NCBI GenBank assembly: GCA_035275545.1
Contig: DATEMP010000272.1
Span: 4,592 to 68,591 of the forward strand
Reading direction: 5' to 3'
Source of the DNA: Candidatus Eiseniibacteriota bacterium
GTDB lineage: Bacteria; Eisenbacteria; RBG-16-71-46
DNA length: 64,000 nt
Shown here: piece after piece, positions 14,504 through 30,917 of the stretch
Position numbering within the stretch: position 1 is the stretch's first letter
Layout of the letters: each line of letters starts with the position of its first letter
The notes under the pieces: generated by a model
Seen by the model: only the letters and a program-made list of their open reading frames with translations
Database searches by the model: none
What the model was told of the DNA's origin: nothing
Position numbers and translations under genes: made by a program

Positions 14504-14506
14504 GGG

Positions 14507-14866
14507 TCACCCGACCTTCTGCGCGCACGCGCCGTTGAGGGCGAAGCCGTCCACGAAGTCCACGGCCTCGTGCCAGCGGCCGAACCGGGCAACCTTCCAC
14601 TCGCGCTTGACCGCGTAGACGCGCCAGCCGTGCGCGAGGGCCACCCGGTTGAGCCGGTCTTTCGTCGTGACCGTGTGCCACCCGCCCGTGTGGAGAGAGA
14701 TGCGGCCGTCCGGGTAGAAGCGGACAACGATCGTCGAGTGAAGCCGAAGGCCGATGCAGACGCCAAGGTCCGCGAGCGTGGTGTTGTTCGCGATGATGCG
14801 CGAGTCGCGCCCGTTGAGGGCTTCGAGTGCTTCCGCGTAGGTCGTCGGGATGTTGTTGCGTGACAC
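14507..14866 (-). CDS. Hypothetical protein (119 aa)
   Basis: First gene of the small minus-strand operon and its best-looking ORF. Confidence 0.4.
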   Translation of the reverse strand: MSRNNIPTTYAEALEALNGRDSRIIANNTTLADLGVCIGLRLHSTIVVRFYPDGRISLHTGGWHTVTTKDRLNRVALAHGWRVYAVKREWKVARFGRWHEAVDFVDGFALNGACAQKVG

Positions 14867-14955
14867 GTTGCCTCCGTCGTTGTCGTCGAGCGAGATTGCT
14901 TCGACGGAGGCGCATCACTTCACGGCGCGTGCCACGTTCGGACGTGTTCGCGAAC

Positions 14956-14972
14956 AATCGTGCAGCGAATTG
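14956..14972. promoter_or_regulatory. Inverted repeat GAATTGC-GGC-GCAATTC (candidate operator)
   Basis: Perfect 7-bp arms with a 3-nt spacer, in a ~550-bp low-coding spacer between the divergent small-gene operon and the res-mod operon. Confidence 0.25.
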
Positions 14973-15496
14973 CGGCGCAATTCCGTGCGAGGTTGTCAGC
15001 GAAGATGAACGCGAGAGGGCAAGCGTGTTTCGTGCGTGCGAATCGGGGCATCTCGCGCGGAGTGCTGCGCGAATCCGCACGACGATGAAGCCCCTCGCTG
15101 CTGCCTCGCGCGAAGGGGAACCGACGCGGGCGGAAACCGGAACCGTGCGGCAGGCGGCAATGAGAGAGGACGGGCGGGCGGGCGCGTCTTAGTCGCGGGC
15201 GCGGGCGCGTATGATTGACGCGTGGGTGCACGCGTGTGCGCGTCTTGTAGAGGGTGGGGGGACGACCCCAAGTGCGGAACGGCTCCCGCTGGGCATGGTC
15301 CGCGTCAGCGAAAACCTGACCCCTGTGCAAGCCCGCCCGGCTAGACGGAGGGGGTTCAACGTTTGATCTCAGAGCCTCCTGCCCGCACACGTATTCCTCT
15401 GCCTCGTACGACCTTGCGGTGCAGGTCCGAGACTGCGAGACTGCCACGGAAACCATTCACCCAACTGCAACTTCGTGGACTCCATGGAGCCCTGCC

Positions 15497-18484
15497 GTGG
15501 CCGATGTCGTCATCGAGAACCCGATCCTCAACTCCCCGTTCGAGGAACCCGGGCGGCACTTCAAGTTCACCGACGATGGCATCACCGACGAGGTCGTCGA
15601 GACCCGGCGCACCAGCTCCTACTTCGTCCCGATCCCGGCCGCCAAGAAGCGTGGCGGGCAGCTCGCGTTCGACACCGAGTGGACGAAGGACCGGATCGAG
15701 GAGAACCGGCAGATCAACCGCATCCGTGAGCGGGTCTCGCAGTGGCGCAAGGGCGGGCACGCGGGGAACCTGACTTCGACCACTCGTAGGCTGCTGGCCT
15801 ACTGGAGCGAGCCCGACCGCGAGAAGAAGCTGTTCTTCTGCCAGATCGAGGCGCTGGAGACTGCGATCTATCTCACCGAGGCGGCGAGGGAGTTCGGTGA
15901 CACGTGGATCGAGAACGAGCTGCGGCGAGGCAATGAAGACGCGAACCCGCTGCTGAACCGCATCGCCTTCAAGATGGCGACCGGGAGTGGAAAGACCGTC
16001 GTCATGGGGATGCTGATCGCGTGGCAGGCCCTCAACAAGCTCGCGAACCCGCAGGACGGCCGCTTCTCCGACGCCTTCCTGCTCATCACGCCCGGGATCA
16101 CCATCCGCGACCGGCTGCGCGTACTCCTGCCCAACGACCCGCAGAACTACTACCGCGAGCGCGACATCCTGCCCGGCGACCTGCTGATCGAGCTGGAGAA
16201 GGCCAAGATCAGCATCATCAACTTCCACAAGCTGAAACCACGCGAGAAGCAGGCAGTCAGCAAGTTGAACAAGAGCATCCTGCGCGCGGAGCAGACTGGG
16301 GCGTTCACCGAGACGCCGGATGAGATGGCCCGCCGCGTGTGCCGCGAGCTGGGGAACAAGAAGAACATCGTTGTGATCAACGACGAATCGCACCACTGCT
16401 ACCGCAGGCGGGTGGCAGAGGAGGACGGCGAGAAGCTCGTTGGGGACGACAGGCGGGAAGCCGAAAAGCGGAACGAGGAGGCGCGCGTCTGGATTTCCGG
16501 CATCGAGGCCATCAAGTCGAAGGTTGGCGTCAAGGTGGTCTACGACCTCTCCGCCACACCATTCTTCCTGCGCGGCTCTGGCTACTCGGAGGGCACGCTG
16601 TTCCCGTGGGTCGTATCGGACTTCTCCCTGATCGACGCCATCGAGTCCGGCATTGTGAAGGTTCCTCGCGTCCCGGTCGCGGACGACTCGGTCACGGGCA
16701 CGCAGCCGATCTACCGCGACATCTGGGTCCGTATCCGAGAAGCACTGCCCAAGAAAGGTCGAGGGAGCAACGAGCTGTCCGGCCCACCGGTCCTCCCTGC
16801 CGAGCTTGAAGGCGCTCTCCGCACTCTCTACGCCAACTACAAGAAGTACTACGAGAGCTGGGAGCAGGACGCAGAGTCCCGGGAGAAGGGCCAGACCCCG
16901 CCGGTCTTCATCGTCGTCTGTCAGAACACGAACATCTCGAAGCTGGTCTACGACTTCATCGCGGGCTGGGAGAAGAAGCTCGCTGACGGCAGTCCGGTGC
17001 TCGTTCCCGGGGCGCTGCCGATCTTCAGCAATGTTGCCGACGGGCAGTGGACCGTGCGGCCGAACACGATCCTCGTGGACAGCGAGCAGTTGGAGTCCGG
17101 TGAGGCCATGAGCGATGACTTCAAGAAGATCGCTGCCATCGAGATCGACGAGTTCAAGGCGGAGTACCGTCTGCGCTTCCCCGGCCGCGATGCCGACCAG
17201 CTCACCGACGAGGACCTCCTGAGAGAGGTCATGAACACCGTGGGCAAGCCGGGCAAGCTGGGCGAGGAGATCAAGTGCGTGGTCTCGGTGTCGATGCTCA
17301 CAGAAGGATGGGACGCGACCACCGTCACCCACATCCTCGGCGTCCGAGCGTTCGGTACGCAGCTCCTGTGCGAGCAAGTCGTGGGACGCGGGCTACGACG
17401 CCGACGGTACGTCGCCAACGCCGAGGGTAGGTTCGACCCCGAGTACGCCGAAGTGTTCGGGGTACCGTTCTCGTTCATCCCGTGCTCTGGCTCGGCTGCC
17501 AACCCGAAGCCGGGGCCGATGCCGACGCGGGTGCGGGCGCTTGAAGATCGCATCGCCTGCGAGATCACGTTCCCGCGCGTGACGGGCTACCGTTACGAGC
17601 TTCCTTCAGAGCGCCTCACTGTCACCTTCGCGGACGACTCGAAACTCGCCCTGACGACCGAAGATGTGGCGACCATCACCGAGAACGCTCCCATCGTCGG
17701 GCAGTCCACGTTTCACAACCTCGATGACCTGAAGGGACGCCGCGAGCAGGAGGTGGATTTCTGGCTCGCGAAGACGGTGCTAGAAGGCTATTTCGCAGAC
17801 CCCGAGGGCAACGTGAAACCGTGGCTGTTCCCGCAACTCCTCCTGATCGCCCGGCGATGGCGCAGCGAGTGCCTCCAGCTCAAGGACGACACGTTCCCTC
17901 AGCTCCTGCTCTTGCAAGAGCGCGCGAGGGAGGCCGCCGACCGCATCTACCACGCCATCGTCAGCTCGACCGAGGGCGAGAAACGGCTGAAGCCCATCCT
18001 ACGCCCCTACGACACGGTGGGCTCGACCCGACACGTGGACTTCGATACGACCCGTCCCGTGTACGTCACGCGCGCCGACAAGAGCCACGTCTCGCACGTC
18101 GTGGCCGACACCGAGTCGTGGGAGCAGAAGATGGCGCAGGGCCTGGAGGACATGGACGAGGTTGTCCACTACGTGAAGAACCAGAACCTCGGGTTCACGA
18201 TCCCTTACACGCTCGACGGGCAGGAGCGCGCCTACGTGCCGGACTTCATCGTGCATGTGGACGACGGCCACGGCCGCGAGGACCTGCTCAACCTGATAGT
18301 CGAGGTCAGCGGCGAGAAGAAGAAGGACAAGGCGGCGAAGGTCGCCACGGCGCGGAGCATGTGGGTCCCGGCGATCAACGCGCATGGCGGCGTCGGACGC
18401 TGGGCCTTCATCGAGGTCTCCGATCCGTGGGACGCCAAGAATACGATCCGCGCAGCGATCCAGTCGCCGACGACGGCCAGCTGA
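15497..18484 (+). CDS. res: Type III restriction enzyme Res-like subunit (SF2 helicase + C-terminal PD-(D/E)xK nuclease)
   Basis: Helicase motifs in order: FFCQIEALETAIYL (Q-motif region), ATGSGKT (I), VINDESHH (II, DExH), LSATPF (III), MLTEGWD (V), QVVGRGLRR (VI). The C-terminal PDFIVHVDDG...LIVEVSGEKK fits the PD-(D/E)xK pattern. A nuclease at the C-terminus means Type III Res rather than Type I HsdR. A GTG at 15497 is preferred because GGAG sits 7 nt upstream; the listed alternative is GTG 15419. Confidence 0.85.
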   Translation: MADVVIENPILNSPFEEPGRHFKFTDDGITDEVVETRRTSSYFVPIPAAKKRGGQLAFDTEWTKDRIEENRQINRIRERVSQWRKGGHAGNLTSTTRRLLAYWSEPDREKKLFFCQIEALETAIYLTEAAREFGDTWIENELRRGNEDANPLLNRIAFKMATGSGKTVVMGMLIAWQALNKLANPQDGRFSDAFLLITPGITIRDRLRVLLPNDPQNYYRERDILPGDLLIELEKAKISIINFHKLKPREKQAVSKLNKSILRAEQTGAFTETPDEMARRVCRELGNKKNIVVINDESHHCYRRRVAEEDGEKLVGDDRREAEKRNEEARVWISGIEAIKSKVGVKVVYDLSATPFFLRGSGYSEGTLFPWVVSDFSLIDAIESGIVKVPRVPVADDSVTGTQPIYRDIWVRIREALPKKGRGSNELSGPPVLPAELEGALRTLYANYKKYYESWEQDAESREKGQTPPVFIVVCQNTNISKLVYDFIAGWEKKLADGSPVLVPGALPIFSNVADGQWTVRPNTILVDSEQLESGEAMSDDFKKIAAIEIDEFKAEYRLRFPGRDADQLTDEDLLREVMNTVGKPGKLGEEIKCVVSVSMLTEGWDATTVTHILGVRAFGTQLLCEQVVGRGLRRRRYVANAEGRFDPEYAEVFGVPFSFIPCSGSAANPKPGPMPTRVRALEDRIACEITFPRVTGYRYELPSERLTVTFADDSKLALTTEDVATITENAPIVGQSTFHNLDDLKGRREQEVDFWLAKTVLEGYFADPEGNVKPWLFPQLLLIARRWRSECLQLKDDTFPQLLLLQERAREAADRIYHAIVSSTEGEKRLKPILRPYDTVGSTRHVDFDTTRPVYVTRADKSHVSHVVADTESWEQKMAQGLEDMDEVVHYVKNQNLGFTIPYTLDGQERAYVPDFIVHVDDGHGREDLLNLIVEVSGEKKKDKAAKVATARSMWVPAINAHGGVGRWAFIEVSDPWDAKNTIRAAIQSPTTAS

Positions 18485-18494
18485 GGGAACAGCC

Positions 18495-21203
18495 ATGCCA
18501 CTAAAGAAGCCACCGGGCCGGCCGAAGCCGGTAAAGAATGCGAAGACGGGTGTCACGTCGGTCAAACACAAGGACAAGCGGACCAACATCCCAACGCAGG
18601 AGCTAAGGGACTTCGTCGCCGAGGCCGAAACCCGCCCGAAGACGGTCCTCTACCCGCGCGATCCCTCGCTCGATCCTCAGCTCGTCTGGAAGGGCAAGGA
18701 CGAGCAGGACCAGCAGTCGCTCACGGTGCCTGCGGTTCCGGTCTACATCCAGGAGAAGATCCACCCGCAGGCGATCATCGAGGAGCTGCGCGCGCGCTCG
18801 GCAAGCGGAGCGGAACCACCCCTCGAACTGTTCGCCGACTTCAACGGGATCGCGTTCGAGCAGCTCGTGGACTTCTACCATCACGAGCAGAACTGGGCGA
18901 ACCGCATGATCCTCGGCGACTCGCTACTGGTGATGACCTCCCTCGCCGAGAAGGAGGGGCTCAAGGGCAAGGTCCAGACGATCTACTTCGACCCGCCCTA
19001 CGGGATCAAGTTCGGCTCGAACTGGCAGGTGAGCACGCGGAAGCGGGACGTGAGAGACGGCAAGGTCGAAGATGCCACGCGGCAGCCTGAGCAGATCCGC
19101 GCGTTCCGCGACACGTGGAAGCTCGGCATCCATTCGTACCTCGCCTACATGCGAGACCGGCTCATGGCGGCGCGTGACCTGCTCACGGAGACGGGCAGCC
19201 TCTTCGTCCAGATGGGTGACGAGAACATCCATCTTGTCCGTGCGGTCTTGGACGAGGTCTTCGGAAGCGAGGACTTCGTGGCACTGATCTCGTTCAAGAA
19301 GACTGGGTACCAAGCCAGTGCTCTTCTACCGAGCAACTTCGACTTCATCCTCTGGTACGCCAAGCACCGCGATCAGGTCAAGTTCCGCCAGCTACACGTC
19401 TCGAAGCTCACAAGCTCCGCGTTTGTTGGTCAAGACCTGTGGCTTGAACTGCTGGACGGAACTCGTCGCAGGTTGAGTTCGGAGGAGAGCGAGGATCTGG
19501 AGTCTGTCCCCGACGGTGGCCGCGTCTTCCGACACAAGCTGGCCGAGTCTGCCGGAGCTGCTTCCGTACGGCAGCCTTTCGAGTTCCACGGTCGGACCTT
19601 CGAGCCGAAGGATGGCAAACACTGGTCCACTACGATCGACGGCCTGCGGCGCCTTGTCGTGGCCAACCGGTTGATGGTGATCGGGAAGTCACTACGATAC
19701 GTGAACTACCTCGCTGACTTCCCCGTGACGCCACTTACGACGAACTGGACGGACACCGTGGTGAGCGGCTTCTCGGACCCGCAGAGGTACGTGGTTCAGA
19801 CGAGTCTGAAGGTTGTCGAGCGGTGCGTGCTCATGACCACCGACCCCGGCGATCTTGTGCTTGACCCGACCTGCGGCAGCGGCACGACGGCCGTCGCTGC
19901 AGAGCAGTGGGGACGACGCTGGATCACGATCGACACGAGCCGCGTGGCCCTCGCGCTCGCGCGCACCCGTCTGATGGCCGCTCGCTACCCGTACTACCTA
20001 TTGGCCGACTCACCCGAGGGACTCCGCAAGGGGGCCGAGATCACGGGGCGGGTTCCGCCCGAGCACCGAACCGACGGGGACATCCGCAAGGGCTTCGTGT
20101 ACGAACGTGTCCCGCACGTCATGCTCAAATCCATCGCGAACAACCCGGACATCAGAGAGGGCATGTCACGCGAGCAGATCGACGCGGCCATCGCCCGCCA
20201 CGCGGAGACCGAGATCCTCTTTGACCGGCCCTACGAAGACTCAAAGCGCATCCGCGTCAGCGGCCCGTTCACTGTCGAGAGCCTCTCCCCCCACCGTGTG
20301 CTCGCGACCGACGACGAGCACCCAGGTTCCGAGACGAGCCAGCACGACGGCGGTCCCCCGTTCGAGACCACGATCCTGGAGAACCTGAAGAAGGCTGGAG
20401 TCCAGAACACCTTCAAGAACGAGCGGCTGGTCTTCGAGCGGATTGAACCGTTCGCGGGTACGTGGATTCACGCGCAGGGCTTCTACACCGACAAGCTCGG
20501 CGGCTCGAAGCGCGTGGCCATCTCCATCGGCCCCGAGCACGGCACGGTCGGCCCCGAACAGCTCAAGGAGGCCGCGAAGGAGTCCATCAAGGGTGTCGGC
20601 TTCGACATGATCGTGGTCTGCGGCTTCGCGTTCGATCCACACGTCTACGAGACCGCCAAGCAGATCGAGCCGGACGCGACAGCGGGCGACGGTACCCGCA
20701 AGGTTGCCGAGCCGGGCACGCAGTACGGGCGCCTCCCGGTGCTGCTGGCGCGCATGAACCCAGACCTTCTCAACGACGACCTGCTCAAGAAGACGGGCGC
20801 AGGGAACCTCTTCATGGTCTTCGGCGAGCCCGAGATCAAGCTCGACCGCGAGAAGGACGGCAAGTGGACCGTGACCCTCAAGGGGCTCGATGTCTACGAC
20901 CCGACGACGGGCGAGGTCCGCAACTCCTCGACCGACGACATCGCGTGTTGGTTCATCGACACGGACTACAACGGCGAGAGCTTCTTCGTCAGGCACGCCT
21001 ACTTCACGGGCGCCGAAGAGCCGTACGAGAGGTTGCAGCGGGCGCTGCGAGCGGAGATCGACGAGGCGGCGTGGTCAACGCTCTACTCGACGAAGAGCCG
21101 GCCCTTCGAGCAGCCGAAGAGCGGGAAAGTCGCGATCAAGGTCATCAACCACTACGGCGACGAGGTCCTGAAGGTCGTCGAGCTAGTCTCGGGTCGGAAG
21201 TAG
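18495..21203 (+). CDS. mod: Type III Mod-like N6-adenine/N4-cytosine DNA methyltransferase (beta class) with ~400-aa C-terminal extension
   Basis: IYFDPPYG (motif IV, DPPY) precedes VLDPTCGSGTTAVAA (motif I) by ~300 aa, which is the beta-class order with an intervening target-recognition region. The N-terminus is basic and AT-hook-like (KKPPGRPKPVKNAK). The ATG has GAGGGA 6 nt upstream. The product is 902 aa, whereas a canonical Type III Mod is about 650 aa. Confidence 0.9.
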   Translation: MPLKKPPGRPKPVKNAKTGVTSVKHKDKRTNIPTQELRDFVAEAETRPKTVLYPRDPSLDPQLVWKGKDEQDQQSLTVPAVPVYIQEKIHPQAIIEELRARSASGAEPPLELFADFNGIAFEQLVDFYHHEQNWANRMILGDSLLVMTSLAEKEGLKGKVQTIYFDPPYGIKFGSNWQVSTRKRDVRDGKVEDATRQPEQIRAFRDTWKLGIHSYLAYMRDRLMAARDLLTETGSLFVQMGDENIHLVRAVLDEVFGSEDFVALISFKKTGYQASALLPSNFDFILWYAKHRDQVKFRQLHVSKLTSSAFVGQDLWLELLDGTRRRLSSEESEDLESVPDGGRVFRHKLAESAGAASVRQPFEFHGRTFEPKDGKHWSTTIDGLRRLVVANRLMVIGKSLRYVNYLADFPVTPLTTNWTDTVVSGFSDPQRYVVQTSLKVVERCVLMTTDPGDLVLDPTCGSGTTAVAAEQWGRRWITIDTSRVALALARTRLMAARYPYYLLADSPEGLRKGAEITGRVPPEHRTDGDIRKGFVYERVPHVMLKSIANNPDIREGMSREQIDAAIARHAETEILFDRPYEDSKRIRVSGPFTVESLSPHRVLATDDEHPGSETSQHDGGPPFETTILENLKKAGVQNTFKNERLVFERIEPFAGTWIHAQGFYTDKLGGSKRVAISIGPEHGTVGPEQLKEAAKESIKGVGFDMIVVCGFAFDPHVYETAKQIEPDATAGDGTRKVAEPGTQYGRLPVLLARMNPDLLNDDLLKKTGAGNLFMVFGEPEIKLDREKDGKWTVTLKGLDVYDPTTGEVRNSSTDDIACWFIDTDYNGESFFVRHAYFTGAEEPYERLQRALRAEIDEAAWSTLYSTKSRPFEQPKSGKVAIKVINHYGDEVLKVVELVSGRK

Positions 21204-21206
21204 TTG

Positions 21207-21452
21207 ATGCGGTTCACCACGCTGAGCTCGAAGACTCCAGAAGTCTTCGTCGAGCTTCGCCCCTCGGCCGACGGCTGCTACTTCTCCGCTCGCATCGAAG
21301 GAGCGCCCGACCGGCTCCCTCGCATCTTCGTGGGCGTTCTCGGCTCCCGCGATGAGGCCATCTCCCAGGCCACGCGCTGGGCGCTCGGCTGGCTGCAGAG
21401 GCTGCGAGGGCACCGCTGTCCATCAGGGGCGCAGCGATCTGTATGGCCGTGA
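21207..21452 (+). CDS. Small hypothetical protein (81 aa)
   Basis: Starts 4 nt after the mod stop and overlaps the SIR2 gene start by 10 nt. No recognisable motif. Confidence 0.4.
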   Translation: MRFTTLSSKTPEVFVELRPSADGCYFSARIEGAPDRLPRIFVGVLGSRDEAISQATRWALGWLQRLRGHRCPSGAQRSVWP

Positions 21453-22528
21453 TCGTTCTTGGAGCAGGCGCGACACGAGGCGCTTCGTTCGTGACAGCGG
21501 CCGCCGGATCAAGGCGGGTGTGCCTCCCGCCGCTTGACGGCGACTTCTTCACCCAGTTGCAGCGTGTAGGTAAGCCTTTGCACCAGGGGACCATCAACGA
21601 TGTGATCAGCAGCGCGGTCGGGCTCTTCGGGGCGAACTTCCGCGTCACGCTGGAGACGATGTTCACTACGGTCGAGCAACTCGCCGCCATGAGCGGCATG
21701 CGCCCATCAGGCGGGAAGCAGGAACGCAGGCGCTTCCAGCGGATGAGAACCTGTCTACTCCAGGCGCTGGCCGGGGTGCTGGAGGAGTCACTCACCGAGC
21801 ACGCTGAGGCTACGACAGGGTCATCCTCCCCTGCGTCGGGTACGGGCTACGCGCTGCGCACCTGCCGCTTCCACCAGAAGATCGTCGAGTCGCTGGCCTA
21901 TTCCGACAGCGTGATCAGTTTGAACTACGACTGTCTCGTCGATGTCGCACTGCGCGACCACGGGCACGGCCGGTGGAACGCGCGCTACGGCTACTGCCTA
22001 CCGATGCAGCCCGTGGGCGAGGGCGCATGGAACCCAGACCCTCCCGCGAGCCGAGGGCGGAGCATCAGTCTGTTCAAGCTGCACGGCTCGCTCCACTTCG
22101 GCAAGCACAGGAGGAACGTGCTCCGGCTGAAGGCGCGCCCCTACAGCCACATGAAGAAGAACCAGGTCTTGCAGTTCGAGATCATCCCGCCGGAGTCCCA
22201 GAAGCGCCTCACGGATCCCACCTTCCGCCACATCTGGTCTGGCGCAGGGACTGCCCTACAGAAGACGAGGACGCTCGTCTTCATCGGGTACTCGTTCCCT
22301 CCCGGCGACGTTCACACCGCGGCCTTCTTCCGACTGCGCGGGACCGGGCGCGCTGCACCCAAGCTGCGGAACCTCGTGGTCGTGAACCCGGACCGCGAGG
22401 CCCGGCACCGCACCGTAGACATCATGCGCGCCTCGATGGACCGAAAGACCCGCGTCCTGGTGTTCGACACCCTCGAAGAGTTCTCCTACGTGCCGCGCGC
22501 GCTCTGGGACAGCGGGAGGCCCAAGTGA
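21443..22528 (+). CDS. SIR2-like domain protein (SIR2_2-type, putative NAD+ hydrolase/effector)
   Basis: N-terminal VIVLGAGATRGASF matches the GAGxS Rossmann start. NYD near residue 163 and LHGS near residue 207 have the Asn/His spacing of Sir2 catalytic residues. There is no Zn-ribbon module, so this is the defence-associated SIR2 type. Confidence 0.75.
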   Translation: MAVIVLGAGATRGASFVTAAAGSRRVCLPPLDGDFFTQLQRVGKPLHQGTINDVISSAVGLFGANFRVTLETMFTTVEQLAAMSGMRPSGGKQERRRFQRMRTCLLQALAGVLEESLTEHAEATTGSSSPASGTGYALRTCRFHQKIVESLAYSDSVISLNYDCLVDVALRDHGHGRWNARYGYCLPMQPVGEGAWNPDPPASRGRSISLFKLHGSLHFGKHRRNVLRLKARPYSHMKKNQVLQFEIIPPESQKRLTDPTFRHIWSGAGTALQKTRTLVFIGYSFPPGDVHTAAFFRLRGTGRAAPKLRNLVVVNPDREARHRTVDIMRASMDRKTRVLVFDTLEEFSYVPRALWDSGRPK

Positions 22529-23181
22529 CTCCAGCAAGCAGGAAGCGGCTGTCGTTGAAGGGGCTCGCCGACTACATGACCGCGTCGCACAGGAAGCAGC
22601 GCGCGATCCTCCACTCCTACAAGTACCCAGACGAGGACGAGTCGCAGGCGAAGATCCTGTACTACCGCGAGGCGCGCGACCGCATCTTGGCCCTCCACAA
22701 GTCGGCGCATCAGCCAGCGTGGCTCCAGAGTGAGGCCCTACAACTGGAGTCGGTGGCCGCTCACGCCACCGACGCGGCGTCGCGCCGACTCATCAACAAC
22801 GCCAGAGCGCTGGTGAGCTACGCGACCCACTTCGGGAACCGGGTGTTCAAGATCCTGGATGAGGCGCACATGACCCTCACAATCGCGGGCGTCGTGATCA
22901 CCGTGCGTCCAGACATGCACGTCGAGGAGAAGCGCGCGGAGCGGCTGATCAAGCTGGAGTTCGGAGTCGAGCCACTGGCCCCAACAGCCATCCGCATCCT
23001 GACGCAGACGATGTACGAGGCCGCTCGCAACTCGGGCATGAGCATCAAGTCGAAGGACGTGCTGTGCTTCGATGTCACCAGGGGCAAGGTCCACGCCGCA
23101 GGAACGCGGATGGGTCCACGGCTGAAGGGTGAGATCAAGGCCGCCTGCCAGAACATCGCCTCGATCTGGGATGGTATCTGA
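22525..23181 (+). CDS. Hypothetical protein (218 aa), SIR2 partner
   Basis: The GTG start overlaps the SIR2 stop as GTGA; an alternative ATG lies at 22576. No recognisable domain. It sits inside a longer 402-aa frame whose upstream part is antisense garbage. Confidence 0.5.
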   Translation: MTPASRKRLSLKGLADYMTASHRKQRAILHSYKYPDEDESQAKILYYREARDRILALHKSAHQPAWLQSEALQLESVAAHATDAASRRLINNARALVSYATHFGNRVFKILDEAHMTLTIAGVVITVRPDMHVEEKRAERLIKLEFGVEPLAPTAIRILTQTMYEAARNSGMSIKSKDVLCFDVTRGKVHAAGTRMGPRLKGEIKAACQNIASIWDGI

Positions 23182-23187
23182 GCAGCG

Positions 23188-23814
23188 ATGGCACTCGAAC
23201 CAATCCAGGAACTGGTGAGGCTCGTCCTTGAGGCCGAGGGCTACTTCGTCCGCAACAACGTGCGCTACCGCATCGAGACCGCGACGAAGAAGGAGGGCGG
23301 GAAGTCGGCGGCGTACTCGGACATCGACATCCTCGCGGTGAAGATCGACCCGAAGAGCGGGTCGGTCGTGGACCGCCTCTGGGGCGAGACGAAGGGTCAC
23401 CTCACCTCGTCCCTCACGGGCGGCTACCTCCGGGCGTTCGCGCCGGACTACGCGGTGCTCCTCGGCGACGGCGCGTGGTCGGATGCCGGTTTGGCGAAGA
23501 AGCACGGGGGGAAGCTGGAGACTCTCAAGATCAGGCGCTCGCGCGCCAGGGCGAGGGCGGTGCAGGTGCTTGGGGAGCCCTTCCGGCGCGTCCTCTACTT
23601 CGGCGGGCGGAGGCCGAAGGACGGCGGCAAGGAAGCGCGGGCACTCCTCGACCCAGAGGTGGAACTCGTCTACGTCCGGGACGTCGTGAGGAAGTGGATC
23701 GGCACGCTCACGCACCTTGAGGGGAATGAGGATGTGGTTCGGGTCATCAACGCCCTCGCGGAGTACGGGTTGATCCGTGTCGCGGACCAGAAGGAGACTC
23801 TCGCTGGTCGGTAA
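23188..23814 (+). CDS. Putative PD-(D/E)xK-fold nuclease-like protein (208 aa)
   Basis: The N-terminal EAEGYFVRNNVRYRIE...YSDIDILAV...GETKGH fits a restriction-endonuclease-like core (hydrophobic strand-D ... D ... E-x-K). It begins 7 nt after the previous gene. Confidence 0.45.
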   Translation: MALEPIQELVRLVLEAEGYFVRNNVRYRIETATKKEGGKSAAYSDIDILAVKIDPKSGSVVDRLWGETKGHLTSSLTGGYLRAFAPDYAVLLGDGAWSDAGLAKKHGGKLETLKIRRSRARARAVQVLGEPFRRVLYFGGRRPKDGGKEARALLDPEVELVYVRDVVRKWIGTLTHLEGNEDVVRVINALAEYGLIRVADQKETLAGR

Positions 23815-23846
23815 TCCTTGCGAGTAGTAGCCGGCAGGAGGATGCG

Positions 23847-24521
23847 ATGGCGATTCACGATGACGAACTGTCGATGCTCAGGGAGTCACTGCCCGAGTAC
23901 GTACGGCTTGCGCGGTTGGGCATCGAGTTCAAGAAGGACAACGGCGGTGCCTTGGGCTATCCGGCGGCAACGCTGCTGTTCGCGGTCGTGGACACGATCG
24001 GGAGCCACCTGCGCAAGCGCGCGGGGCTCGAACCGTACACGGTGACCGTGGGCGGGCAACAGCAGCCCATCAAGAAGACCGCGCACCACTTCCTCGTGCT
24101 GAACAGTCCATACTTCGGCATGGACCTCAGCGCGACCGAGATCGAGAGGTTATACGACTTGAGCCGGTGCCCGCTGACGCACAACGCACTTCTCGGGCTC
24201 GGCGTCCGGCTCACCGTGGAACAAGCGATCCCGAACGTCATCGAGTTCCGAGAGGGGATCGCCACTATCTCCCTACCTGACTTCCTCAAGCGGTGCGAGC
24301 AAGCCATCGAACGGTTCCTCGCGGAGGCCGAGAAGATCGTCGCCGAGTCGGCGGCCGTGGATGAACTCCGGAAGGAGTCGTACGCGCGCGTGAACGCTGA
24401 GGCGATCAAGAAGCTGGAGGAGCTTGCGAGGTCTGGCAACTGGGGGCAGTCGGCCCAGGCGTCCGGGATGGGGAGGCCGAATCGGATTGGAACGTCGGAC
24501 CCAACAAGGAGACCCCGCTGA
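23847..24521 (+). CDS. Hypothetical protein (224 aa)
   Basis: Last gene of the plus-strand cluster. Largely helical with no recognisable motif. Confidence 0.45.
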   Translation: MAIHDDELSMLRESLPEYVRLARLGIEFKKDNGGALGYPAATLLFAVVDTIGSHLRKRAGLEPYTVTVGGQQQPIKKTAHHFLVLNSPYFGMDLSATEIERLYDLSRCPLTHNALLGLGVRLTVEQAIPNVIEFREGIATISLPDFLKRCEQAIERFLAEAEKIVAESAAVDELRKESYARVNAEAIKKLEELARSGNWGQSAQASGMGRPNRIGTSDPTRRPR

Positions 24522-24606
24522 TCGTGGTGACCAACGGGGCTCGACTCGCAGGCGAACGGGCGTGACCAAGAGCCCAGGGCCACGATGGAGTATACGAGAC
24601 CTGCAA

Positions 24607-25437
24607 TCAGGGACTGGTCCCCGAACCTGTGCAGGACACCGTAGCTCCCCAACCAAGGTCCAACGTGCAATCACGCTGCCCGGTGGCGGTTGGTGTGAAG
24701 CGTACGATGAAGACGATCGTGCCCCCAAGCAGGTAACTAGCTTCTCCCCCGGGCACCGGGTTGCCATTCATGTAGACGATGCGGAAGTCGGGACAGGGCG
24801 ACGACACTGTGCCCGTTAGTTCGCATCCGCTTTCGTTCCTCAACTGGAAGGACATGTCCACACTCGATCCCAGTGGGACGCTCCCGAAGTCCAGAGCGTT
24901 GGGGACCGTGGAGACCCGCGGCGTGCATACCACAACGTCAGGGGGCCAATGAGCGGTGGAGGGATAGCTGTTCATCGCACTCATGATCCTCCCCGGCCCA
25001 AGGATGATCGTTGCAGGAACGCACTGGCAATCGACGGGTTGCTCCTCGCACGTGTGAGGCCAGACGCGAGCAAGTGAATCTCGCGGAGGATACGTGTACG
25101 AGGTATCAACGCCATACCCATCCGCATTGCTCCTGATGACCCGGATTGTGAGGGGCAGATTGCTGTCGAAGGTTCGCTGGAAGTCTCGCCACTCACAGAA
25201 TGTGGGTGGGCGATTGTTGTTGTCGAGCACAAAGCTATCCCTTGCTGCACCGGAAAGGATGACGGTCCACTTGGGGTAGGAGTAGTTGCAATCTCCCTGC
25301 CCAATGTCCTCGTTCCACGAGAACGTGACCCTGCTAGTGCTGGCCGGCGGTGGCCCGCTCTCAGTGGGGGCTGTCTTATTGCCGCATCCCGCCGCGCAGA
25401 GGGCGACGAGGCACACGGTGAAGGCGAACGACCGCAT
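24607..25437 (-). CDS. Lipoprotein (hypothetical, Cys-rich)
   Basis: Signal peptide with a lipobox (LVALCAAGCG) and many paired Cys. Convergent with the plus-strand cluster. Confidence 0.55.
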   Translation of the reverse strand: MRSFAFTVCLVALCAAGCGNKTAPTESGPPPASTSRVTFSWNEDIGQGDCNYSYPKWTVILSGAARDSFVLDNNNRPPTFCEWRDFQRTFDSNLPLTIRVIRSNADGYGVDTSYTYPPRDSLARVWPHTCEEQPVDCQCVPATIILGPGRIMSAMNSYPSTAHWPPDVVVCTPRVSTVPNALDFGSVPLGSSVDMSFQLRNESGCELTGTVSSPCPDFRIVYMNGNPVPGGEASYLLGGTIVFIVRFTPTATGQRDCTLDLGWGATVSCTGSGTSP

Positions 25438-25584
25438 CGACGGCTCCTCCCTCTGATCGCCCCAGGCAGGGCGGACACGTGCGGCAGGGAATCAGATCGA
25501 GGCGAGTTATCGGCGGGGCGCACGAGGCGCTTGAGGGCACGGAGAGGACCTTCCGGCCAGATCGCGCTGCGGGATGCTCGCAGC

Positions 25585-26052
25585 TCATGACTCGTCGCCG
25601 TCGAGCGCGTCGAAGACTTCGTCCGGGTCAGCGCCCACGATCTCGCACGCGGCGGTCACGCCATCTCGAAAGCACGGGCAGTCGGTGCAGGACTCGATGA
25701 CTTCCTCCGGGTGTTGCTCAGCGAGCTGCTCTGCACCCCCGGTGTGGCCTTCGGTGCCGGCGGTGAGCGTGGCGATCATGTTGGACGCGATCACATCGCG
25801 GCGTCGGGCGAGAAGCGCCTCCTCGATGCTATGTTGGATCGCTAGAATGTCCGCGTCAGGACCGTGCTGCTGGCGAAGGCGGTGCAGGCTGTATAAGGCG
25901 CTCAAGCGCCCTGCCCTGAAGCCGTCGTTGCCGAGGTCGCTCTCCTCCCCCGTTCGCAGCCGCCGCGCGAGCGCGGGGTCGAAGCTGGCGAGCCAGAGGA
26001 GGAACCCACTCTCTGTCGGGTCCGGTGACGGGGTCGGGATCGGGGCGATCAC
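25585..26052 (-). CDS. Hypothetical protein (155 aa)
   Basis: First listed ORF of the minus-strand island block; it contains a CxxC pair (SCTDCPC). Confidence 0.4.
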   Translation of the reverse strand: MIAPIPTPSPDPTESGFLLWLASFDPALARRLRTGEESDLGNDGFRAGRLSALYSLHRLRQQHGPDADILAIQHSIEEALLARRRDVIASNMIATLTAGTEGHTGGAEQLAEQHPEEVIESCTDCPCFRDGVTAACEIVGADPDEVFDALDGDES

Positions 26053-26339
26053 TGTCGCCTCCGAAGACCGGCCTTCGCGAACAGAGATTGGACCCCGTAG
26101 GCGAGGCGGGCTGCGAGTGCATCGTCGGTGAGACGCTCGTCGGTTCGGAGGGCGTCGAGTTCGGCGATGAACTCCCTCGCTTCGACTTCGGACAGAACGG
26201 GGTAGCCGAAGCTGCTCAGGGTCGCCGCGATCACGATGTACGCAGCTGCCTGCTCGGCGAGAGCGGACTGGCGTGCGAGGTTCGTCGGCGCAGTCGAAAG
26301 CATCGAGGGCGCGACGGGGATTGCGGTGGGCTTGCTCAT
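26049..26339 (-). CDS. Hypothetical protein (96 aa)
   Basis: Coupled to its neighbours by a 4-nt overlap. Confidence 0.4.
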   Translation of the reverse strand: MSKPTAIPVAPSMLSTAPTNLARQSALAEQAAAYIVIAATLSSFGYPVLSEVEAREFIAELDALRTDERLTDDALAARLAYGVQSLFAKAGLRRRQ

Positions 26340-26533
26340 GACTTCACCTCCAGCTTGCGGACGTTGATCGCCCTGTTCATGTTGCTCGGGAGCGCCTCGA
26401 TGTCGAACTCGATGTGGTCACCCTTGCTGAGGCCGCCAACCTGCGAGTGGGGCAGGTAGATGTCGCCGCTGCCGTCGTCGGCGATGACGAAGCCGTAGCC
26501 CTGTGCGGCGACCAGTTTGACGATGCCGGTCAC
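26336..26533 (-). CDS. Cold-shock domain protein (CspA family)
   Basis: 65 aa; GIVKLVAAQGYGFVIADDGSGDIYLPHSQV matches the RNP1/RNP2 region of the cold-shock domain. Confidence 0.7.
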   Translation of the reverse strand: MTGIVKLVAAQGYGFVIADDGSGDIYLPHSQVGGLSKGDHIEFDIEALPSNMNRAINVRKLEVKS

Positions 26534-26886
26534 GACTCGTCACTCCTGCGAAGGAAGGCCCGATCCGCGTCCGTCAACTCAGGGTTGGCGGCGATGAAGG
26601 CTTCCGTTGCTTCGCGTGCTGCCTGCTTGCGTGCTTCGGGCGTGGACAGGTCGCCGAGGCGCTCCGCTTCACGGGAGGTGATGGCGGCCACTGCTCCCTC
26701 GATGCCGTTCGCGATCCGCGCGAAGGTCGGCAGAAGGGGCAGGCCGTCACGCCCGAGTGACACGGGCTTCACCAGCGGCTTGGCTGGCGGTGCGGGCTTG
26801 GGGGCGGGTGTGGGCTCAATGGGTGGCGGGGGTGGTACGGAACGTCCTGCGCCGAATCCAGAACCGTACGGCATGAATGTGCTCAT
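26530..26886 (-). CDS. Hypothetical Pro-rich protein (118 aa)
   Basis: Coupled ORF; PPPPPIEPTPAPKPAPPAKP low-complexity linker followed by a helical C-terminus. Confidence 0.35.
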   Translation of the reverse strand: MSTFMPYGSGFGAGRSVPPPPPIEPTPAPKPAPPAKPLVKPVSLGRDGLPLLPTFARIANGIEGAVAAITSREAERLGDLSTPEARKQAAREATEAFIAANPELTDADRAFLRRSDES

Positions 26887-26941
26887 TGTGATGTTCCCCT
26901 TGTACTGCTGATGGTTGGATGGTGATGGGGCGAAAGGTGGG

Positions 26942-27508
26942 CTACTTCTTGTCGCGCTTCCTTGCGTTGCGACGTTGCTGCGCGAGCATGCGTTTGCGGG
27001 ATGCGGGATCTGCGGCAGCCAGGCGCTCCTCGAACTGGGCCTGCTTGACTGCGCGTGCCCTGCTCATCGACGCACGCTTCTCGGTGAGTTCGGCATCGCG
27101 CTCTGCGTGCTTGGCCTCTGCTACTTCTGCACGGTACCGCTGCGCGAGGTCGAAGCCGGCGGCCGACAGGCTGTTGATCCCGAGAAGGTCGACCTCGTCT
27201 GCTTTGTTGGCGAGCCAGTCGGCGATCTGCGCGAGCGTGTACGTCGAGGTCCACCAGTCGCGGAGCCGGTCGCTGCCGATCTCGCGGACGAAGTCCCTCG
27301 CGATTTCTTCCTCACGAGAGAGCTTCTCGGCAGCAGGGTTGTTCGCGGTCGAGGGGCTGGCGTGCGGTTCGTCGTCGCGTTCGCGGGCCCAGAGGAATGG
27401 GCGCACGAGGCTCGCTGTCGCGGGGTGCAGCCCGGCGAGGTCGCGACGATGCAGCTTGCCGTGGATCGCGCGGTTGATCAGGTCGTGGATGTTCTGTTCG
27501 TTCTTCAT
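26942..27508 (-). CDS. Hypothetical protein (188 aa)
   Basis: Charged, helical ORF; no motif recognised. Confidence 0.4.
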   Translation of the reverse strand: MKNEQNIHDLINRAIHGKLHRRDLAGLHPATASLVRPFLWARERDDEPHASPSTANNPAAEKLSREEEIARDFVREIGSDRLRDWWTSTYTLAQIADWLANKADEVDLLGINSLSAAGFDLAQRYRAEVAEAKHAERDAELTEKRASMSRARAVKQAQFEERLAAADPASRKRMLAQQRRNARKRDKK

Positions 27509-27610
27509 GATTCCTCGTGCCCCGCAAGGGCGGTAAGCGCGACAGGCCCGCCGACGGAGATCGGCGAGCCCGCCATGCCCGGGGGCAGCCCGGGCGCGCT
27601 TCGGGTCGTA

Positions 27611-29152
27611 CTACTGCTGGTCTTCGTCGGTGAGCTTGGAGACTTCGACCCGGAATGAGAGAGACGTGTACTCGCTGTGCCCCTTCTCGGTCAGTTCGTA
27701 CTCGCCCTTCTTGCCGGTCGGAGCTATGAGCCCCAGCTTGGTGAGGTCACCGCGACAGTTCTTGTAGTACCCGTCCGCCTTCTTCACCGACGCTTCGCTG
27801 TCGCTAAGGCCGAGGAAGTCCGTCGCCCATTCGCGTCCGAGGGTCACGTCGATCCGCGAGTCGGGGGTGCCGCCGATGAACAGGAGAAGCTGCTCGACCT
27901 TGTTGGGGCCTGCGTTGGCGGGGACGATCTTGGCGCGCGAGAATCTGTGCTCATTCGGGTCGAGGACCAATGGGGTACCGGCCTTGCGCGCGGCGTTGAT
28001 CTTGTCCTTGATCGAGAGCAGGTAGTCGATGTCCTGATCGAGCCCGTCTTCAGCGTCGAGGCAGATGTAGAAGTCCGGCTGCTCCTTGCCTCGGACCTTC
28101 GGGAACGTCAGCTTCGATTTCGGTTCTCCCTTGGAGCGGATGAAGTTGATGATCGTATCAGCGCCGTCGGGGATGCGAGATGCACCACGGCCACTGTGAA
28201 TGCTGCCGTCGCCTTCGTTGCCTTTGCCCCAGTGGTGGAGGAGGACGACCGCGATCCCCGTCCTGCGCGCAAGCATCTGGAAGAAGTTGACGACATACTC
28301 CATCTCATTGTTCGAGTTCTCGTCGAGCCCGTGAATCTTCGAGAGAGAGTCGATCACGAGAAGCTGCTTGCCCTGCGTCGCGAACGCTCCGCCGTCCATC
28401 CACTTCGCCAACTCACCTTTCAGCCGGAGGAGTTCCTCAGGGGCAGGCTTCGTATCGCGGACGCCGACACGATTGGGCGTGGCCTCAAGAATGACATCCA
28501 GTTCGCGCGAGAACTGGGCGTTCAGTTTCGGGGTGCGCGGGTCGTTCGGGTCCGGCGCGTAGATGTGCGGCGACTCCGGCCACCAGAAGTGCACAAGGTC
28601 GTTGAAGGGCGAGTAGTACGCCTCGTCGGCCGGGAACGCGGGTTCGGCGTCCGGGTCTTCCTCCGATGGGACGGGGATGCCCTCGGTCGTCATCTCCTGC
28701 TCGATCAGAGCATCGCGCGCGAACTGCTCCTCCTGCTCCTGCGTCAGCCGACGCCACTGACCGGCGAGGTCCTCAGGCGAGGAATCGAGGAAGATGCCAA
28801 CTGAGGCGACTTGGTCGGTGGGGAACTTGCCCAGCCACTTGGTCCCGGTAGCAGTCGCACGGAGCAGGTCCAAAGCTGCCCACGTCTTGAGGGACGAGGC
28901 CGCTCCTTGGAACAGGGTGACCGTGCCGGGGCGAATGATCCGGTGGACGAGGTAGTCGTTGGGGCGTGCCTCCATCGACTTGAACCGAGCCCGAACCAGC
29001 TTCGGGGAGTTGAGAAGGGCCCGCTTGCGTTCCTCCTTCTCCTTCTCGATGCGGGCGCGTTCGGCGACCTCATGTTGCGTGACCAGTTCTTCAACCGTTG
29101 GGGACGGGAATGCTTGCCCTTCGGCTGCTGCTGCAGGTGTATCGTGCGACAT
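27611..29152 (-). CDS. RecA-superfamily ATPase, AAA_25/RepA-like (island replication/mobilisation candidate)
   Basis: Walker B-like LLVIDSLSKI plus IAVVLLHHWGKG are typical of AAA_25/RepA-like proteins. The P-loop is degenerate (QGAASSLKT in place of GxxGxGK[ST]). The 3' part carries a long helical/basic C-terminal domain. Confidence 0.55.
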   Translation of the reverse strand: MSHDTPAAAAEGQAFPSPTVEELVTQHEVAERARIEKEKEERKRALLNSPKLVRARFKSMEARPNDYLVHRIIRPGTVTLFQGAASSLKTWAALDLLRATATGTKWLGKFPTDQVASVGIFLDSSPEDLAGQWRRLTQEQEEQFARDALIEQEMTTEGIPVPSEEDPDAEPAFPADEAYYSPFNDLVHFWWPESPHIYAPDPNDPRTPKLNAQFSRELDVILEATPNRVGVRDTKPAPEELLRLKGELAKWMDGGAFATQGKQLLVIDSLSKIHGLDENSNNEMEYVVNFFQMLARRTGIAVVLLHHWGKGNEGDGSIHSGRGASRIPDGADTIINFIRSKGEPKSKLTFPKVRGKEQPDFYICLDAEDGLDQDIDYLLSIKDKINAARKAGTPLVLDPNEHRFSRAKIVPANAGPNKVEQLLLFIGGTPDSRIDVTLGREWATDFLGLSDSEASVKKADGYYKNCRGDLTKLGLIAPTGKKGEYELTEKGHSEYTSLSFRVEVSKLTDEDQQ

Positions 29153-29408
29153 GGTGAAACTCCTCGGCCCATGAGGGCCGTGCACCAGAGGGTAGTCCTA
29201 CGGTCGGCTGGTGCGCCTGTCGGGGAAAGTTCCCCTGCCGTGGGATGCCCGGGCGACCCCCCGGGCTGGGGGTGGTTTCTGCTGCTTGAGTTTCGAGCCG
29301 CTCCGCCTACTGCTGCAGCAAAGCCGGCGTCAGCCTGCTGCCGCCTGCTGCCGTCTCGGGCGGCAATAGCGAGCGTAGCGACCGCAGTGTGTCTCTCTTA
29401 GATAACGG

Positions 29409-29666
29409 TTACTGAGGCGTAAGCGGTTGTGACGGGCGGGCACTCGTAAGCGGTCGAATGGTGCCCCGCAGCTTCTGGAGATGGGCCGGCCGCCATGAAC
29501 AGCCGCAGCCCTGCGACAGGCTGGAGAGCAGGTTGCCCCCCTGCACCTCGCGGGTGACTCCGCAGGCGCACTGGCAGAGCCAGTAGGCCCGCCCGTAGCG
29601 GCTTGGAGCCCGGCTCAGGACGGTCCAGTGACCGAAGGTCCGGCCGGTCAGGTCGGTCGCCCTCAC
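29409..29666 (-). CDS. Phage-type zinc-ribbon protein (HNH-associated Cys4 motif)
   Basis: GRTFGHWTVL...YWLCQCACGVTREV...SQGCGCS is the pattern common in phage/island small proteins. A GTG start was chosen inside the listed ORF. Confidence 0.4.
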   Translation of the reverse strand: MRATDLTGRTFGHWTVLSRAPSRYGRAYWLCQCACGVTREVQGGNLLSSLSQGCGCSWRPAHLQKLRGTIRPLTSARPSQPLTPQ

Positions 29667-29899
29667 GCGGCCTCCGGGCTGGAGTGATCGGGCCAGCTCT
29701 CGCACGGCTTCGTCCTGATCAGCCGGTCGAGGCGCTCCCACTCCGATATGGATTCCCGGACGGGGATGACTGTGATGACGACTTGGACGGGATGGCTAGG
29801 GTTTTCGGATGACATGCTTCCTCCGGTACTGATCTGGTTGACCGCCTGCTGGATGACTGCCTCGACGGCGGCGTCTCCTACAACGTCTCGTGCTCTCAC
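29663..29899 (-). CDS. Small hypothetical protein
   Basis: Weak ORF upstream of the Zn-ribbon gene, joined to it by a GTGA overlap. Confidence 0.2.
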   Translation of the reverse strand: MRARDVVGDAAVEAVIQQAVNQISTGGSMSSENPSHPVQVVITVIPVRESISEWERLDRLIRTKPCESWPDHSSPEAA

Positions 29900-30090
29900 T
29901 GCGTACTCCTTTCTCCGGCCTCAGCGGCCGGCGTCTACACGCTGCTTGGTCTCTCGCCTCACGATGGAGATGGTGTCGCCGACCACCAGTACGACGAAGG
30001 CCAGTAGGAACAGCGCGGCCGGCGGCATGATGGTCGCGCACAGAACGGCGGCGGCCACCAGCGCTGCGGTTGAAGGGCTCACGCTCACGC

Positions 30091-30396
30091 CTACGCCTCG
30101 AAGACGTTCGGGTCGTTCGGGTCGTGGACGCCATGCATGAAGGGCACGACGCCACGCGGGCCCTTGTACCAGAGACGCCCCTTCCGGCCGCCCGCGATCG
30201 GGTTGCCCTCAGCACCTCGGCCGCCGGTGATGTGGCCCGGCGAAGAATCGCGAGGTGGCATGAAGCGCGCGTCACCCTCGATGGCGGACTTGGCCCGGCG
30301 CTGAAGCACTGCGAGGTCGACGCCCTCGACGGCCTTCTGGCGAGCACGGTATTCGTTGTCGCCGTCAGGCGGGGGAAGCGCGGGTCTGTCACTCAT
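30091..30396 (-). CDS. Hypothetical protein (101 aa)
   Basis: ATG-initiated ORF with decent coding look; no motif recognised. Confidence 0.35.
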   Translation of the reverse strand: MSDRPALPPPDGDNEYRARQKAVEGVDLAVLQRRAKSAIEGDARFMPPRDSSPGHITGGRGAEGNPIAGGRKGRLWYKGPRGVVPFMHGVHDPNDPNVFEA

Positions 30397-30573
30397 GGTC
30401 GTTACCTCCTGCTCGCCTTCGCGAGCGTGTGCCGCACGTTGCGGCTGGTTGTTCTGCGTTGGAGCACACCTACGTCTCGGTGGTGTTCGTGAGGGAGAAG
30501 TACGAGCCGAGGGGCTCGCTCAACGCGACCCGGGGTGGGCCGCCCTGCGCCTCGGGGAACGCGCGGGTTGTTG

Positions 30574-30813
30574 CTAGGCTGCTGTGGTCTGCCCCGCTGC
30601 CGCGATCGCGTTGGTGGACACGTCGCGGGCACGGCGGAGTTCTGCGCGGATCGCGACGACCGTGGCCGGGCGCACGAGATTGCCGTCGTAGGCGCGCTTG
30701 AGCGTCCGGTAGCTGATGCCGGTGAAGGCGGAGAAGCTGACGACGGACATACGGGTGGCAGCAAGGGTACGACGCATCTCGTCAGCAAGCCCTTCGATGG
30801 TGGAGGTGGTCAT
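30574..30813 (-). CDS. Putative HTH DNA-binding protein (excisionase/regulator-like)
   Basis: 79 aa; the segment FSAFTGISYRTLKRAYDG looks like a helix-turn-helix. Sits near attR. Confidence 0.35.
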   Translation of the reverse strand: MTTSTIEGLADEMRRTLAATRMSVVSFSAFTGISYRTLKRAYDGNLVRPATVVAIRAELRRARDVSTNAIAAAGQTTAA

Positions 30814-30917
30814 TGGGAGACCTCCGGTGTTGGGGGGAAAACAAGTAGACCCCGCCGCCGTGATGGCAGCCGGGCCGCTGATCGGGGACCGTGTGCTCTC
30901 GATCCGAGGTGATAACT

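Follow-up and report, generated by a model that had tools for sequence, protein, structure and literature searches.

The SIR2_2-type defense proteins studied so far, namely ThsA, DSR1 and DSR2, and the SIR2 proteins of SIR2-HerA and SPARSA, are hydrolases of nicotinamide adenine dinucleotide (NAD+), or NADases. The DSR proteins are about 1000 residues long and carry a large C-terminal sensor. PrrC and RloC are anticodon nucleases that reside in type I restriction-modification (R-M) operons as a back-up layer. SIR2-HerA systems (Nezha/GAO_19) have likewise been found as insertions within or behind R-M loci (PMC11514479), and a report on one such system describes an NADase gated by DNA ends (PMC13434337). 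According to another report, Kongming consists of the deaminase KomA, the HAM1-like protein KomB and the SIR2 protein KomC, a SIR2 effector acting with small partners (PMC13454610). Here we analyzed a 64,000-nucleotide (nt) stretch of contig DATEMP010000272.1 (assembly GCA_035275545.1, Candidatus Eiseniibacteriota bacterium), hereafter the window, in which a gene for a small SIR2 protein lies downstream of a type III-like R-M pair. It is preceded by a short open reading frame (ORF) of 81 codons, orf81, and followed by genes for proteins of 218, 208 and 224 residues, referred to as p218, p208 and p224.

The original prediction had treated these as one five-gene defense system. Our analysis indicates that the segment from 21.2 to 24.5 kilobases (kb) consists of separate defense-type genes at the far end of the defense cargo of an integrated island, not one five-gene machine. 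Only the SIR2-p218 pair and the placement of SIR2 at the ends of R-M operons recur elsewhere. Four separable cargo modules are present: the res-mod pair, SIR2 together with p218, p208, and p224. Gene content, folds, motif conservation, neighborhood statistics and island borders are the observations from which we start. The best explanation, which we put at about an even chance, is that a small SIR2 NADase with a Cas4-like partner has been appended to the R-M operon as a second layer. The earlier suggestion of restriction combined with NAD+ depletion is thus retained as the most plausible functional reading, with the NADase activity being predicted.

The SIR2 protein matched the Pfam model SIR2_2 (PF13289; 36.4 bits, cut-off 24.5; E 6.8e-9) and several PADLOC models (best SIR2 model E 2.6e-10), the closest being generic 'SIR2' models of similar length. 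The whole of its 361 residues is SIR2 domain. These matches and the intact catalytic motifs confirm the single-domain SIR2-like identity assigned to it earlier. The motifs read G7AGATRGASF, N161-Y-D163 and K212-L-H214-G-S; among 30 aligned family members, GAGATRG, N161/Y162/D163 and H214 were invariant or at least 90% conserved. The residues originally proposed as catalytic, N~163 and H~207, were misnumbered and should be N161 and H214. The absence of a zinc ribbon is borne out, since none of the five cysteines forms a CxxC. Family members are uniformly about 335-390 residues long. The public annotation of the window protein (345 residues) begins 16 codons late and thereby drops the conserved GAGATRGASF NAD-binding loop (21443-21490), whereas homologs align from residue 1, favoring the 361-residue start. 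Among PDB sequence profiles, the nearest solved relatives were SIR2 chains of 12-chain assemblies (8yhx, E 1e-4; 8j4u and 8w9l weaker), which we take to be SIR2-HerA complexes; these matches were weak overall (E 1e-4 to 0.2). Judging from its family membership, the window SIR2 is most likely a NAD+ hydrolase effector of the ThsA/DSR/SIR2-HerA kind. Viral contigs held SIR2 relatives only at 23-38% identity and none of p218, p224 or orf81, so a phage-encoded or anti-defense origin is unsupported. Plasmid collections contained no match to SIR2 or p218, and the plasmid and viral collections likewise none to p218 or p224.

By contrast with SIR2, p218 was unmatched by the Pfam PDDEXK and Cas4 models, NCBIfam, PADLOC and PDB sequences. 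Its AlphaFold2 model, built on 35 sequences, reached a predicted local distance difference test (pLDDT) score of 93, and the predicted structure is a Cas4/RecB-type nuclease fold. The earlier description of p218 as lacking a recognizable domain therefore holds for sequence libraries and fails for predicted structure. Within the p218 family P129-D130 is invariant, and K143-x-E145-F146 and Q161 are kept. The strand that follows P129-D130 reads K143-x-E145, a 'KxE' reversed relative to the canonical '(D/E)xK', and Q161 has Y or F at +3 (the canonical motif being QxxxY). The four-cysteine iron-sulfur (Fe-S) set of Cas4 and AddB is missing and C208 is the sole invariant cysteine, which also distinguishes p218 from the Argonaute-associated Cas4-like ACE1.

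These features place the locus near several described systems and within none of them. Its likeness to SIR2-HerA lies in a small, sensor-less, single-domain SIR2 (350-430 residues) beside a DNA-processing partner. However, a HerA/DUF87 gene is absent from the cluster and from the called island genes, the partner here is a 218-residue Cas4/RecB-fold protein whereas HerA is a hexameric ATPase, and the window SIR2 resembles the SIR2s of the presumed SIR2-HerA structures only weakly in sequence. Thoeris shares the SIR2_2-type catalytic domain with its N/H motif, common to ThsA and the window SIR2, but Pfam and PADLOC detected no SLOG domain, TIR protein or signaling-nucleotide component here. As with DSR1 and DSR2, a lone gene with no constant partner can encode the SIR2 effector; unlike them, the window protein has no C-terminal sensor in its 361 residues. 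It differs from SPARSA in having no APAZ extension and no Argonaute among the called genes, and its match to the PADLOC model Aga_SIR2 covers only the SIR2 core, residues 149-293. Kongming, too, combines a SIR2 effector with small partner proteins, but the four neighbors of the window SIR2 have no deaminase or HAM1/NTP-pyrophosphatase match (Pfam, NCBIfam, PADLOC), and p218 has a predicted nuclease fold. The claim that no known SIR2 partner is present was thus upheld by the Pfam and PADLOC scans, which found no TIR, SLOG, HerA, pAgo or STAND partner among the cluster neighbors of SIR2. Among the papers covered by a full-text search, none described a system combining SIR2 with a Cas4-like protein or one with a small SIR2 embedded in an R-M operon, which is weak negative evidence.

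Neighborhoods were compared from SIR2, p218, p208 and p224 as anchors, and the five-gene unit was conserved nowhere sampled: it was absent from the closest relative, from 80 SIR2 loci, from 16 p218 loci, from four p224 loci and from two p208 loci. Since the anchors show no shared unit, the cluster is not conserved as five genes. When 80 SIR2-family loci from metagenomes were searched with tblastn for p218, p208, p224 and orf81, none of the 80 gave a match; a profile search picked up a distant p218-like partner in four. What survives is the pair. In the closest relative (P0002, an 11.8-kb contig of JGI 3300047160), SIR2 and p218 are each 88% identical to those of the window and the order SIR2-p218 is kept, with different flanks: the upstream genes are not those of the window, and downstream lies a glutaredoxin gene on the opposite strand. 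A distant p218-like gene of 202-206 residues also follows SIR2 in loci L001-L004, L022-L024 and L030 (profile E 1e-9 to 1e-10), and it aligns to the p218 profile collinearly and over its full length. In this group the SIR2s are 49-51% identical to that of the window and the partner is 17% identical. In the called genes of L001-L004, the p218-like gene overlaps SIR2 by 4 nt, as in the window. In a neighbor-joining tree all partnered SIR2s fell into one clade. Because the same clade holds the partner-less members L021, L109, L025-L027 and L108, the pairing is confined to one clade and has been lost or replaced repeatedly.

The second recurring feature, adjacency to R-M genes, was surveyed in 43 non-redundant SIR2-family loci whose flanks measured 2.5 kb or more. 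R-M genes (types I, IIG or III) lay within 5 kb of SIR2 in 18 of the 43; in 12 such a gene was the direct, co-oriented neighbor, and in several of these 12 the spacing ran from a 14-nt overlap to a gap of about 12 nt. Immediate upstream neighbors (n=30) included enzymes of the Eco57I/MmeI/Type ISP kind (five), HsdR (two), Mod (two), HsdS (one) and Mrr (one); downstream lay methylases, UvrD, Lhr or Schlafen-group-3 helicases, or SMC-like ATPases. In the metagenome contigs L062 and L067 a res-mod family 47-49% identical to that of the window lies 9-12 nt upstream of SIR2, and the SIR2s of these two loci fall in a clade of the tree distant from that of the window. Members of the SIR2 family are found repeatedly within R-M operons of types I, IIG/ISP and III or at their 3' ends, co-oriented and often 0-15 nt away. 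The comparison with PrrC and RloC is one of functional analogy only: in both cases an abortive-infection effector sits inside an R-M operon, the SIR2 family being similarly placed. A tRNA nuclease differs in chemistry from a predicted NADase, and SIR2 is associated with R-M systems of three types, I, IIG and III.

The remaining two genes are independent cargo. p208 is very rare (16 matches among 1.84 billion representatives), and E15, D45-x-D47 and E67-x-K69, a classical PD-(D/E)xK signature, are kept in all its full-length homologs; this conservation supports the motif of the PD-(D/E)xK-like core suspected earlier. Two homologs, 85% and 52% identical, lie among unrelated genes, and SIR2 is absent from both loci. 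In p224 the motif R107-x4-H112 (an instance of the Rx4-6H motif of HEPN proteins) is invariant in 24 sequences. Homologs of p224 (45-70% identity) adjoin RadC, HATPase_c_3, Abi_C, HNH and Schlafen-helicase genes, without SIR2, p218 or p208, and the four homolog loci with DNA share nothing else from the window. Neither orf81 nor any of p218, p208 and p224 matched a family in Pfam, PADLOC, NCBIfam or PHROGs. By predicted structure for p218, and tentatively by motif for p208 and for the HEPN-like p224, these products would have defense-typical folds that sequence profiles miss.

According to our favored explanation, SIR2 would hydrolyze NAD+ in an abortive-infection response that forms a second layer behind restriction. 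Because the protein has no sensor domain of its own, its activation would be external, with either a partner or the surrounding R-M system providing the input. As the trigger, DNA ends or DNA-processing intermediates are most plausible because of the dodecameric SIR2 relatives, the DNA-processing neighbors and the DNA-end-gated NADase of SIR2-HerA. In this lineage p218 is a candidate adaptor that would read or produce such ends or intermediates, by analogy with HerA in SIR2-HerA. We infer the NADase activity, the trigger and a physical link of SIR2 to p218 or to Res/Mod; binding of SIR2 to the R-M enzyme, or its silencing by that enzyme, is putative only, by analogy.

A bolder version of this explanation is tentative and rather improbable in our estimate. 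It holds that the SIR2 family of about 350 residues is a dedicated restriction-enzyme back-up, switched on by DNA ends or anti-restriction proteins, and thus a SIR2 counterpart of PrrC; one clade, with a Cas4-like DNA-end adaptor, would form an undescribed two-gene SIR2-Cas4-like system. SIR2 would then be transcribed together with R-M enzymes of types I, IIG and III, to which it might also bind, and would respond either to DNA ends, restriction-generated or of phage origin, or to anti-restriction proteins that disable the R-M enzyme. If SIR2, with or without its Cas4-like partner, is indeed wired to restriction enzymes, the result would be a simple and widespread layered immunity in which a NAD+-depleting suicide module guards a first-line nuclease, and the Cas4/RecB fold would be a new class among the partners of SIR2 effectors. 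Hundreds of family members occur, in many phyla and in environmental metagenomes, and current defense-finder rules miss them, as they require HerA, TIR, pAgo or the large DSR architecture. Apart from this bolder version, the SIR2 gene of this defense island, which has a Cas4-like partner within a single clade, is an undescribed form of SIR2-based defense with a notable affinity for R-M operons.

Several observations weigh against an R-M-linked SIR2-p218 module. Most SIR2-family members have no p218-like neighbor, including the 50-53% identical relatives L021, L108 and L109, so SIR2 does not generally need p218. Conversely, of the 16 genome loci reached from the p218 anchor, which span at least eight phyla, 15 lack an adjoining SIR2 gene and none has this SIR2 family. 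E145 and Q161 are missing from the SIR2-linked partner in the L001 clade, where they have been lost, and p218-type nuclease chemistry may therefore not be conserved. An AAA_21-type ATPase pair follows the p218-like gene in L001, L023 and L024 and also in L005, which has no SIR2, and this pair may be an alternative partnership of the p218 superfamily. In the window itself, mod and SIR2 are 239 nt apart. The adjacency to R-M genes could be mere defense-island clustering; the figure of 18 in 43 stands without a matched random-gene control and does not establish enrichment over other defense-island genes. NADase activity is assumed from family membership.

An alternative is pure co-location, by which the four genes would be independent single-gene defense or addiction modules and the overlap and R-M adjacency would mean only co-transcription. 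We consider this possible but not probable. Each of the SIR2, p218, p208 and p224 families occurs elsewhere without the others, and the neighbors of SIR2 and p218 are highly heterogeneous defense genes; for p218 homologs those upstream include HsdS, a protein kinase, Schlafen/AlbA_2, HATPase_c_3, a STAND-TPR NTPase, RmuC and GIY-YIG. In addition, p218 homologs are frameshifted (split) or truncated in four of the 16 genomic loci (L016, L017, L019 and L020), which suggests frequent decay of the gene and is expected of dispensable cargo. Against this stand the order of SIR2 and its p218 or p218-like partner and their 4-nt overlap, kept although the SIR2s are about 51% identical and the partners barely alignable, and the position of SIR2 0-15 nt from R-M genes of three types in many unrelated contigs. 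A sensor-less SIR2 of 361 residues also needs an activating input. Were the genes merely co-located, the locus would be an ordinary defense island on an integrative element, its value lying in four unannotated defense-type genes to which folds can be assigned.

The two-gene translational coupling on a mobile island would also be compatible with a toxin-antitoxin-like or addiction pair that stabilizes the island or the R-M operon, with the roles of toxin and neutralizer either way. SIR2 is conserved, whereas its partner is diverging quickly (51% against 17% identity), and the partner's catalytic residues are not conserved. Yet most SIR2-family members would then be unneutralized toxins, and p218 homologs mostly stand alone, many with gaps of 100-400 nt on both sides, which makes such a pair unlikely. 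It is a little less likely still that SIR2, rather than being an NADase effector, acts on the neighboring R-M enzymes or on DNA in a modulating role, as a deacylase of proteins or an ADP-ribosyltransferase. Its consistent placement inside R-M operons would suit that role, and sirtuin-fold proteins of other families carry out reactions of this kind; the match to SIR2_2 rather than to the classical SIR2 family, the missing zinc ribbon, the NADase activity of the SIR2_2-type defense proteins studied so far and an R-M association that spans mechanistically unrelated types all argue otherwise. Finally, a new five-component system of orf81, SIR2, p218, p208 and p224, physically fused to the R-M operon, appears very improbable. 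The genes are co-oriented with tight junctions, the partners match no known system by sequence and all recognizable folds are defense-typical, but the unit is conserved nowhere sampled and orf81 is probably not a gene.

The positions of the genes and of the surrounding island are collected in Table 1. Strand and order of the five ORFs agree with the original prediction, and four of them are real genes, orf81 being unsupported. The overlaps of 10 nt and 4 nt (GTGA) between the first three ORFs were as described, whereas the two following gaps measure 6 and 32 nt and had each been given one nucleotide too high. The coding signature, rich in GC at third codon positions (GC3), is present in all four of SIR2, p218, p208 and p224, and these have at least 570, 61, 16 and 25 homologs, respectively, in other organisms, those of SIR2 having about 340-360 residues. 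By comparison, orf81 has an atypical GC2 of 0.60 and GC3 of 0.78 (neighbors 0.42-0.50 and 0.84-0.89), is uncalled in the ENA copy of the contig, has no family match, and is absent from L062 and L067, where SIR2 begins 9-12 nt past mod. For these reasons we treat it as unconfirmed; it is probably not a gene and may be merely the 239-nt spacer between mod and SIR2. The hairpin at the p224 stop is a possible terminator closing the plus-strand gene string, terminator-like sites being no commoner than in shuffled sequence. No sigma-70-like sites were found in a promoter scan, and an Rfam scan matched only the tRNA and its att copy.

Table 1. Coordinates of the SIR2 locus and of the island that carries it (window positions).
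Feature	Position	Strand	Remarks
tRNA-Lys(CTT)	12467-12542	+	ARAGORN; Rfam tRNA 73.8 bits
attL, left copy of 57-nt direct repeat	12492-12548		In 3' part of tRNA; repeat family D2, copies 100% identical
Tyrosine integrase of island	12589-13749	-	Pfam Phage_integrase 1.4e-21
Res, type III-like R-M	15497-18484	+	Helicase and C-terminal endonuclease; 995 residues from annotated start
Mod methyltransferase	18495-21203	+	902 residues; Pfam N6_N4_Mtase 1.4e-29; PADLOC MTase_III 4.7e-262
orf81, doubtful small ORF	21207-21452	+	ATG 4 nt past mod TAG; TTG at 21204
SIR2, single-domain SIR2_2 protein	21443-22528	+	361 residues; predicted NAD+ hydrolase effector; Pfam and PADLOC matches
p218, predicted Cas4/RecB/Dna2-fold protein	22525-23181	+	GTGA overlap with SIR2 (translational coupling)
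p208, rare small protein	23188-23814	+	PD-(D/E)xK nuclease motif; independent cargo gene
p224, HEPN-like protein	23847-24521	+	R107-x4-H112 motif; disordered C-terminal tail; independent cargo gene
Hairpin, 12-bp stem	24512-24540	.	At p224 stop, between convergent genes; terminator-like scan
AAA_25 RepA-like gene	27611-29185	-	
attR, right copy of 57-nt repeat, island end	31502-31558	+	D2, 100% identity; partial Rfam tRNA match

The segment belongs to a 19-kb island integrated at tRNA-Lys (window 12467-31558), whose borders follow from the tRNA, the integrase, the perfect 57-nt repeat and a dip in G+C content (0.62-0.66 inside, 0.68-0.72 outside). Its cargo comprises the R-M pair with SIR2, p218, p208 and p224, the remainder being the AAA_25 RepA-like gene and small ORFs. 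The type III-like R-M pair reported upstream of SIR2 stood up to the PADLOC scan: in addition to the Mod match, Res matched PADLOC REase_III (5.2e-10), Pfam ResIII (1.8e-10) and, weakly, RE_endonuc. Here res precedes mod, unlike the classical type III order of mod then res.

Some related loci have further features. On the P0002 contig, the region 1-6 kb upstream of SIR2 holds an unannotated 384-residue gene, a DUF87/HerA gene of 715 residues and an N6_N4 methylase gene of type II-like kind, and genes for 81 and 223 residues lie directly upstream of SIR2. The 223-residue gene was considered as a p224 homolog and set aside, as no p224 homolog maps to this contig; the 81-residue gene may be related to orf81. 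In L011, from a metagenome-assembled genome of Gemmatimonadaceae (9950-14239), a p218 homolog lies about 0.9 kb upstream of a canonical SIR2 (342 residues)-DUF87 HerA (562 residues) pair; it was rejected as a second SIR2-p218 co-occurrence, as that SIR2 is distant and HerA-paired. The ATPase pair after the p218-like gene consists of an AAA_21/SMC-like ATPase (507-573 residues) and a 307-345-residue gene, in L001 (9074-12336), L023, L024 and L005 (9995-13302); the first three are type I R-M loci containing SIR2, and L005 is SIR2-less. L062 (1-10165) and L067 (17-5553) have the common order mod, SIR2 and UvrD-like helicase (about 700 residues), and in L062 res and a 637-residue gene lie ahead of mod. 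In L101 (611-5684) and L103 (2265-4252), p224 homologs follow a RadC gene at a distance of a few small ORFs, and in L101 also after a HATPase_c_3 protein; these settings look like the accessory regions of mobile elements.

Within the island, a 119-residue ORF by the integrase (14507-14866, minus strand) matches the cyanophage protein family Kyano_Gp96 in Pfam (5.8e-7). Just inside attR, two 70-nt direct repeats (D1; 77% identical, 88 nt apart, 30907-31064) could serve the island as a regulatory element or as part of a replication origin.

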